Below, one piece after another: positions 14,309 through 14,341 of a stretch of 64,000 nucleotides of DNA. The position numbers were made by a program, and so were the translations under genes. Source of the DNA: Pseudomonas phage vB_PaePA10145phi1_MKR2; sequence record PV565008.1; one strand, given 5' to 3'. Position 1 is the stretch's first letter, and each line of letters starts with the position of its first letter. A model generated the notes under the pieces. It saw nothing but the letters and a program-made list of their open reading frames with translations, was not told where the DNA came from and ran no database searches.

Positions 14309-14341
14309 CATAATGCCCTCCCGTAATGGGAGGGCATTATG
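14309..14341. terminator. Bidirectional terminator: CATAATGCCCTCCC-GTAA-TGGGAGGGCATTATG
   Basis: Extended 14-bp palindrome between convergent genes, carrying the conserved CATAA and ATTATG flanks. Confidence 0.8.

Follow-up and report, generated by a model that had tools for sequence, protein, structure and literature searches.

The hairpin under study lies at positions 14309-14341, between the convergent genes gp129 (+) and gp130 (-), in a stretch of 64,000 nucleotides that was analysed as a whole and is called the window below. The window comes from a phiKZ-like Pseudomonas jumbo phage and corresponds to approximately 118,751-182,750 of phiKZ (NC_004629), from the end of gene gp120 to gp178. 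Over 6 kb around the focal hairpin, identity to several phiKZ-like jumbo phages of Pseudomonas is 99.2%; over a 1.25-kb piece it reaches 100% with MRostami-2023c and 94.7% with phiKZ itself. The element reads CATAAT-GCCCTCCC-GTAAT-GGGAGGGC-ATTATG and forms a perfect 14-bp stem with a 5-nt loop, with a fold energy of -28.5 kcal/mol on either strand (z -8.8 and -7.2).

A first, sequence-only reading of the window had placed this hairpin in a family of 12 (1851, 7298, 8024, 14309, 24166, 34180, 39451, 49079, 52841, 53546, 55041 and 59549), and all 12 were recovered. The pattern CCCTC-N{4,11}-GAGGG matches the window exactly at these 12 sites, for 0.12 ± 0.33 matches expected from 100 dinucleotide shuffles, while the stricter palindrome CATAA-NN-CCYYC...GRRGG-NN-TTATG gives 3 matches against none expected. 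A GC-rich stem-loop of the CCYCCC...GGGRGG type is found at all 12 sites, with fold energies between -21.6 and -28.5 kcal/mol (z -4.9 to -8.8); when the flanks are counted, stems extend to 13-14 bp and would end bluntly or with a 2-nt overhang. According to the ORF map of the window and the phiKZ annotation, the hairpins are intergenic and lie just downstream of stop codons. No Rfam 15 family reached the gathering score in a scan of the whole 64-kb window.

The loops had been described as mostly 4 nt and often UUCG. This holds for six sites, four of which carry TTCG, and the other six have loops of 5 nt. Seven CATAA-stem-TTATG palindromes had been counted; the exact form is present at four sites (14309, 39451, 49079 and 59549/59550), and 8024, 52841 and 55041 carry near-variants. 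The ATTATG following the stem is not the invariant element that had been claimed, being exact at 4 of the 12 sites; the other tails are TTTATG, CTATG, TATATG, ATTATA, TTTATTTTG or TTTATATCG, and the 24166 hairpin has none. TATG is nevertheless strongly enriched beside the stems: of the 24 sides of the GC stems, 19 have one no more than 10 nt away (8 downstream on the plus strand and 11 as upstream CATA), for a background of 3.1% per 10-nt window (binomial p ~ 1e-24; 562 TATG in the window, both strands). TTAT is found at up to 10 nt from the stem on 9/12 plus sides and 8/12 minus sides (background 5.9%). These tails, of the TTAT type with 3-5 T in 8 nt and usually no more than 3-4, are not the U-tract of a classical intrinsic terminator. 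A generic scan requiring an uninterrupted U-tract (at least 5 T in 8) flagged only some of the sites, in part because it took the AT flank for stem. The same sigma-70/terminator scan was uninformative for promoters because the phage does not use host RNA polymerase.

Transcript ends were taken from the ONT-cappable-seq study of phiKZ by Putzeys et al. 2024 (Microlife 5:uqae002, PMC10914365), which reported 149 transcription starts (TSS) and 133 termination sites (TTS), with 61 terminators sharing the motif 5'-BCCYCCCCHWWDGGGRRGGBYTTATKYYGT-3', a hairpin followed by TTAT, and six overlapping bidirectional terminators between convergent genes. Individual positions were obtained from the supplementary tables of the preprint. 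We analysed 85 TTS (T034-T118; T001-T033 and T119-T133 all fall outside the window range) and 144 of the 149 TSS (P003-P007, likewise outside this range, were left out); promoters of Ceyssens 2014 enter only as flagged in the Putzeys table. The phage of the window is a sister strain, and these phiKZ ends were transferred to it by orthology: all 12 hairpins are also present in phiKZ, where the surrounding 100 nt are 94-100% identical.

Published 3' ends lie at 10 of the 12 orthologous hairpins (T057, T059/T060, T063, T067, T070/T071, T076-T078 and T081), 2-8 nt past the stem, in agreement with the proposal of one conserved terminator family. That several members are bidirectional is supported at two of them by ends mapped on both strands. 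At the focal hairpin, T059 (133067, -) and T060 (133099, +) correspond to about window positions 14310 and 14343. The second, at 39451-39484 between gp153 (+) and gp154 (-), reads CATAA-GCCCTCTCC-CAAAA-GGAGAGGGC-ATTATG; its surrounding 100 nt are 100% identical to phiKZ, where T070 (158210, -) and T071 (158242, +) are found. The count of six hairpins between convergent genes had to be raised to seven (8024, 14309, 39451, 49079, 52841, 55041 and 59549), all with symmetric tails, as expected of elements serving both strands.

At the remaining five of these seven, the published 3' end is either clear on a single strand or ambiguous. For the palindromic terminator at 49079-49110, between gp163 (+) and gp163.1 (-), the published phiKZ table gives T076 (167868, +) and no minus-strand end. 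The terminator between gp165 (+) and gp165.1 (-), at 52840-52871 (the 52841 hairpin), reads CATAA-GCCCTCCC-GCAAT-GGGAGGGC-ATTATA, so that its plus-side tail lacks the G, and has an end on the minus strand only (T077, 171597). Between gp168 (+) and gp169 (-), the element at 55041-55073 (CATAAC-GCCCTCCC-ATTAC-GGGAGGGC-TATATG) is also associated with a minus-strand end only (T081, 173797). Near the palindromic terminator at 59550-59581 (the 59549 hairpin), between gp174 (+) and gp175 (-), the only published end is T083 (178352, -), located at an A-run before the hairpin and probably an oligo-dT or poly(A) artefact. T058 (126821, -), near the terminator at 8025-8046 (the 8024 hairpin; CATAAA-CCCCTCTCC-GCAT-GGAGAGGGG-CTATG) between gp125 (+) and gp126 (-), is also at an A-run before the hairpin; it is ambiguous, and we read it as an artefact of the same kind.

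The other five hairpins are on the plus strand. The one following the major head protein gene gp120 (1852-1877, the 1851 hairpin) consists of GCCCTCCC-TTCG-GGGAGGGC followed by TTTATG, and T057 (120629, +) falls at about window position 1879, 8 nt past its stem. The hairpin after gp124 (7300-7317, the 7298 hairpin; GCCCCTC-TTCG-GAGGGGC then TTATTTATG) has no published 3' end, the phiKZ table giving no TTS between 120629 and 126821. After gp138, the terminator at 24168-24185 (the 24166 hairpin) carries CATAAAT upstream and no T-rich tail on its plus side, yet an end is mapped in phiKZ 6 nt past the stem (T063, 142947, +). The terminator after gp146 (34182-34201, the 34180 hairpin; TTCG loop, tail TTTATTTTG) corresponds to T067 (152963, +); its junction is also convergent, but a second hairpin at 34270-34296 (-) serves the other strand, with T068 (153024, -). 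Finally, the terminator after gp166 (53547-53564, the 53546 hairpin) has an imperfect stem, a TTCG loop and the tail GGTTTATATCG, and corresponds to T078 (172327, +).

Extending the comparison to the phiKZ genome gave 118 perfect GC-rich hairpins, for 3-7 in Markov controls, and among the 85 analysed TTS, 57 are located 2-12 nt beyond such a stem, with a median of 6 nt. The last RNA base at these 57 ends is T in 45 cases, C in 12 and a purine in none, in poly(A)-tailed ONT libraries that carry a bias against terminal A. The base that follows the 3' end is G in 18 of the 57, for 9.3 expected by permutation (p ~ 0.001); a surplus of A at the same position is probably a poly(A)-trimming artefact. 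At TATG-tailed sites the RNA ends as ...UUAU|G or ...UUAUGYY|G, so that the TTATG is located inside the terminated RNA or at its very end.

Such ends could in principle be left by exonucleases rather than by the polymerase. The hairpins would then act mainly as processing stops or stabilisers of RNA 3' ends, transcripts being read through and trimmed back to a CAUAA...UUAUG duplex. Termination and trimming to a hairpin look alike in these libraries, the flank-extended stems of 13-14 bp would end bluntly or with a 2-nt overhang, and the upstream CATAA is kept even at co-directional sites, as a role of the RNA duplex would predict. However, a TTS call required a drop in read coverage of at least 20% across the site (Putzeys et al., 2024), and a preference for ends at Y|G or Y|A is typical of polymerase stops. 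Orthologous elements of phage 201phi2-1 also terminate transcription in an in vivo reporter trap: eight terminators of this phage have been validated in vivo (Microb Biotechnol 2024;17:e70037, PMC11512511), and the one at 179,552, which lies 8 nt past a hairpin at the junction orthologous to the window 49079 site, matched lambda T0 in the terminator trap with host RNA polymerase. Stabilisation and termination are not mutually exclusive; trimming as the main function of the hairpins appears unlikely to us.

The CATAA and TTATG flanks had been expected to be conserved beyond the window, and they are, both throughout the phiKZ genome and at orthologous junctions of 201phi2-1 and PS119XW. In phiKZ, the base after TAT is a G on 25 of the 36 sides belonging to convergent junctions. 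Among co-directional sites, the downstream TTATG is found on the gene-entry side in 21/96 cases and its mirror image, the upstream CATAA, on the back side in 24/96, for a genome-wide background of 16% G after TTAT. At orthologous convergent junctions in the syntenic region of 201phi2-1, the stems are for example GCCCAGCC/GGCTGGGC and GCCAGTCC/GGACTGGC, flanked by CATA(A)A upstream and (T)TTATG downstream, and at the gp129/gp130 junction of PS119XW (Pawinskivirus) the stem is GCCCGGC/GCCGGGC with CATAAA and AATATG. Orthologous stems thus differ between genera, with compensated arms, while the CATA(A)/(T)TATG flanks are kept. We therefore regard the flanks as a selected part of the terminator, which agrees with the published motif.

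Loops also differ according to gene orientation. In phiKZ, 5-nt loops of the ATTRC/GYAAT type are present at 8/18 convergent sites and 3/96 co-directional ones (p = 1e-5), whereas TTCG loops are found at 25/96 co-directional sites and 1/18 convergent ones. The focal loop itself is inverted between strains: it is GTAAT in the window, LC and 124.01 and ATTAC in phiKZ, PA7, Bobae and Wadjak 1, and all four combinations of loop orientation with a 1-nt indel in the right flank exist among strains. These sequence comparisons point to recurrent hairpin-mediated inversion or recombination. Events of this kind take place on DNA and, together with the dispersal of near-identical copies over the genome, they would suit palindromes whose function lies in the DNA itself (cruciforms, sites of protein binding, mobile or gene-converting repeats), with transcript ends being incidental. 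We find this extremely unlikely, as nearly all hairpins directly follow stop codons, the orientation of the UUCG loop at co-directional sites agrees with the direction of transcription, stems change between genera in a compensatory manner while their position is kept, and 3' ends lie at a fixed distance from the stem.

In the window, the upstream CATAA is more frequent than the downstream TATG (11/12 versus 8/12), and at co-directional sites, where no gene enters from the other side, the two are about equally common, so that bidirectional gene termination alone does not explain it. Its TAA is not the stop codon of the flanking gene: stops are located 3-25 nt further out, as in TAA-CAG-CATAA at 39445-39455, and the motif is also found where no gene ends. 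Pairing of CAUAA with the tail is weakly supported by comparison with permuted flanks (3.03 versus 2.83 extension pairs, p = 0.07; at convergent sites, 4.06 versus 3.51, p = 0.07) and by the association between the flank C and the tail G (odds ratio 2.9, p = 0.04). It may block antisense transcription or, within a blunt duplex, shield the 3' end after its release.

The sequence-only reading had also noted that the ATTATG contains TATG and had proposed that hairpin and TATG form a combined terminator and late-start signal, with the position of late 5' ends relative to the ATTATG as its test. Its premise is correct, since phiKZ late promoters consist of a TATG core with the G as +1 (Yakunina 2015), and the enrichment of TATG beside the hairpins is strong. 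Late starts are moreover mapped 11-48 nt after some terminators (P016, P049, P054, P075, P078 and P104), which might be taken as the non-virion RNA polymerase (nvRNAP) re-initiating at the G of the tail. The mapped starts themselves speak against this: none of the 27 phiKZ starts in the window range coincides with a hairpin-adjacent TATG, and none of the 144 compared genome-wide with the 85 TATG found within 13 nt of a GC stem, on both strands, lies on the stem-proximal TATG of a tail. Late 5' ends away from the ATTATG are the result by which the sequence-only reading had itself proposed to be judged wrong. The sole coincidence in this comparison, P049 (94330), corresponds to a second TATG, 5 nt further on, in TTATGCTATG. 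The six late starts listed above all skip the tail TATG and use a downstream one, which for P049 and P075 is 5-10 nt away. As described above, 3' ends map at or just past the TATG, placing the motif in the tail of the terminated RNA, and a start at this position at convergent sites would yield antisense RNA only.

The sequence context of the tails differs as well from that of used promoters. The GC content at -12 to -4 is 0.63 for tail TATGs, whose stem occupies these positions, and 0.31 for 44 used late promoters with a locatable TATG (Mann-Whitney p ~ 4e-17). Used late promoters have A at -7/-8 and T at -6, an AT-rich context that tail TATGs lack. In the promoter complex described in IUCrJ 2026, DNA is bent and opened in that upstream region. 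A GC-rich stem where the promoter must be AT-rich and melt is thus a plausible reason why the tail TATG is not a start, and a combined terminator and late promoter is, in our view, very improbable.

Promoters do occur close to the hairpins. Eighteen mapped phiKZ starts lie 11-56 nt past a hairpin, among which seven early starts are at a near-fixed distance of 46-56 nt. A terminator followed by a late promoter, built on a different stem (AGCCTTCCTC...), was found at 26865-26903 (+), with the hairpin at 26865-26889, T064 (145649) and the late start P075 (145659). In its tail, TTTATAATGCTATG, the second TATG is the mapped start P075, and TTATAATGCTATGT is kept after the orthologous hairpin in 201phi2-1 and PS119XW. 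The early promoter consensus of the virion RNA polymerase, AAAGTTTAAGATCTATATTAC, has 3 matches for 0.06 expected. One copy, at 1894-1914 (+), about 22 nt after the 1852 hairpin, is absent from the published phiKZ TSS table; another, at 53601-53621 after the 53547 hairpin, corresponds to the mapped early start P091 (172385). Neighbouring promoters therefore have sequences of their own, and the coupling amounts to tight packing of separate signals rather than to a shared TATG.

We conclude that the hairpins are very probably factor-independent (intrinsic) transcription terminators of a phiKZ-type jumbo phage, a conclusion drawn from the sequence, the published phiKZ 3' ends and the analogy with the 201phi2-1 trap. 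Directly observed were the structure and enrichment of the hairpins, the sites where published 3' ends fall, the lack of 5' ends at the tail TATG and the conservation across genera. In the mechanism that we propose, the nascent RNA would fold into a GC stem of 8-9 bp, typically GCCCUCCC/GGGAGGGC, and the polymerase would halt 2-12 nt later within the short U-rich tail UUAU. The RNA would end with a pyrimidine, often just before a G, either that of TTATG or the next one in TTATGYYGT; since 3' ends precede it, this G would be the halt point of elongation and not the start of a new RNA, and it may act as a Y(-1)/G(+1) pause position. A perfect hairpin being the same on both strands, the mirrored CATAA, the reverse complement of TTATG, would allow one element to stop transcription in both directions. 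Convergent junctions would use a dedicated symmetric form, in which the 5-nt ATTRC/GYAAT loop takes the place of the strand-specific UUCG tetraloop and CATAA/TTATG is present on both sides. Pairing between CAUAA and UUAUG may help either by disrupting the hybrid or by keeping exonucleases away from the released 3' end.

A variant of this mechanism would give the TATG a more active part. In the IUCrJ 2026 structure, the core beta-like subunit GP123, and not the sigma-like gp68, binds the non-template TATG at -3 to +1. An RNA ending in ...UUAU would put the non-template TATG in the same register, so that the late-promoter pocket of GP123 might read the tail during elongation, as a CRE-like sequence-specific pause located at the right distance from the hairpin. 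A single tetranucleotide would then be a start selector in initiation and a pause or release site in termination, and the mirrored CATAA would be the same signal on the opposite strand, which may also bring pervasive antisense transcription to a halt. The preference of 3' ends for Y|G fits this pause and equally the generic pause signature of multisubunit polymerases, and we regard a role of the GP123 pocket as doubtful, though conceivable. If true, this would tie together the signals for initiation and termination in a non-canonical RNA polymerase. Orthologous terminators work with host RNA polymerase. TATG tails accounted for 18% of early units, against 35% for middle and 40% for late ones; among co-directional sites the difference is not significant (2/19 versus 12/48, p = 0.32), in a test that is weak because promoter classes were motif-based, and the idea that these tails are special to late (nvRNAP) units was not retained.

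As a discovery, the terminator family carries little weight: for both phiKZ and 201phi2-1, publications already describe it together with the TTAT tail and the bidirectional members; these are ordinary terminators that call for no new element type, and they have already been tried as synthetic-biology parts. The present analysis closes off the idea of a late promoter sharing the terminator TATG and sharpens the description of the family, with CATAA flanks even at unidirectional sites, a loop class of convergent junctions and pyrimidine 3' ends that often precede a G.

The motif of Putzeys et al. 2024 and the family of the window are the same: they share the phage group, the stem, the TTAT(G) tail and the positions in the genome. 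The 14309 and 39451 sites account for two of the six published bidirectional pairs, and a third, T067/T068, corresponds to the 34180 and 34270 hairpins. The published motif starts at the stem, without the mirrored upstream CATAA, and its description includes neither the ATTRC/GYAAT loop subclass of convergent junctions nor 3' ends preceding a G; these three points are new details. For 201phi2-1, 15 bidirectional terminators were reported (PMC11512511), and that study describes a motif A that "strongly resembles" the phiKZ terminator motif and a motif B that elongates the hairpin and may correspond to the CATAA flank. This phage differs by its genus (Serwervirus), its GC content (46%) and its stem sequences at orthologous junctions. 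The late promoters of phiKZ (TATG at -3 to +1; Yakunina 2015; GP123 pocket, IUCrJ 2026) share the tetranucleotide TATG with the terminator tails; unlike them, tail TATGs have no mapped 5' ends, and they follow a GC-rich region where the promoters are AT-rich and carry A at -7/-8. With canonical Rho-independent and bidirectional terminators, the window family has in common the GC hairpin, a weak rU:dA-rich hybrid, a mirrored tract for the two strands and ends 2-12 nt past the stem. It departs from them by a UUAU(G) tail in place of a run of 6-8 U, by a mirrored tract that is CAUAA and not an A-run, and by its natural enzymes, which are two non-canonical phage multisubunit RNA polymerases.

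The 5-nt loop of the bidirectional terminator hairpin between gp129 and gp130 (window 14323-14327; phiKZ 133080-133084) was compared between the window, phiKZ and the phiKZ-like strains (loci L009-L013), and was found in two orientations among these close relatives, the 5 nt being inverted from one to the other. The window, LC and 124.01 carry GTAAT; phiKZ, PA7, Bobae and Wadjak 1 carry ATTAC. The right flank of the hairpin also varies by an indel of a single A, and all four possible combinations of loop orientation and indel state were recovered among the strains, which suggests a recurrent palindrome-mediated inversion or recombination. 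The same hairpin, together with the end of gp129, is overlapped by a minus-strand ORF of 118 amino acids (window 13996-14352), which has no counterpart in the phiKZ annotation and is probably spurious.

Apart from the GC-stem family, and without relation to it, the gp127 coding region contains an AT-rich perfect palindrome of 13 bp, TTACATGTACCAG-GAGTTAG-CTGGTACATGTAA (window 9292-9324). The phage encodes homologues of palindrome nucleases, one SbcC-like (gp165, window 50337-52829, labelled from its annotated 201phi2-1 orthologue) and one SbcD-like (phiKZ gp65, outside the window), and its genome holds more than 100 perfect palindromes, the longest reaching 33 bp.

At co-directional terminators, the upstream CATA(A) is kept as often as the downstream TTATG throughout the phiKZ genome, as seen in the window at 1851, 24166, 34180 and 53546, and no gene enters these terminators from the CATA(A) side. 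The upstream motif may possibly serve in antisense termination, in protection of the 3' end or as an unknown upstream element. The plus-strand terminator T063, located after gp138 (window 24168-24197), lacks a T-rich tail on its transcribed strand (AACTCTTACAAA); the complementary strand, which has no annotated gene there, carries a perfect tail, ATTTATGCTGTT. Two of the published 3' ends on the minus strand, T058 (phiKZ 126821, window ~8065-8075) and T083 (phiKZ 178352, window ~59590-59600), are positioned at long A-runs just ahead of hairpins and not past them. In the source data, they look like the result of oligo-dT priming at internal sites or of poly(A) trimming rather than true termination sites.

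About 22 nt past the gp120 terminator lies the early-promoter consensus AAAGTTTAAGATCTATATTAC (window 1894-1914), followed by the gp121-gp124 operon, which includes gp123, a subunit of the phage nvRNAP. The copy at 53601-53621, which corresponds to P091, an early start mapped in phiKZ, has the identical sequence. For the copy at 1894-1914, the table of Putzeys et al. (2024) gives no start; plus-strand starts are absent from it between phiKZ positions 118184 and 130258. At window 26865-26903, a hairpin whose stem differs from that of the family, AGCCTTCCTC-TTC-AAGAGGAAGGCT, corresponds to terminator T064 of phiKZ and is followed by a promoter. The late start P075, mapped in phiKZ, falls 10 nt past the T064 3' end, at the second TATG within TTTATAATGCTATG, 3' of the hairpin. 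Downstream of the orthologous hairpin, TTATAATGCTATGT is kept in both 201phi2-1 (L008, ~9073-9088) and PS119XW (L014, ~33008-33023).
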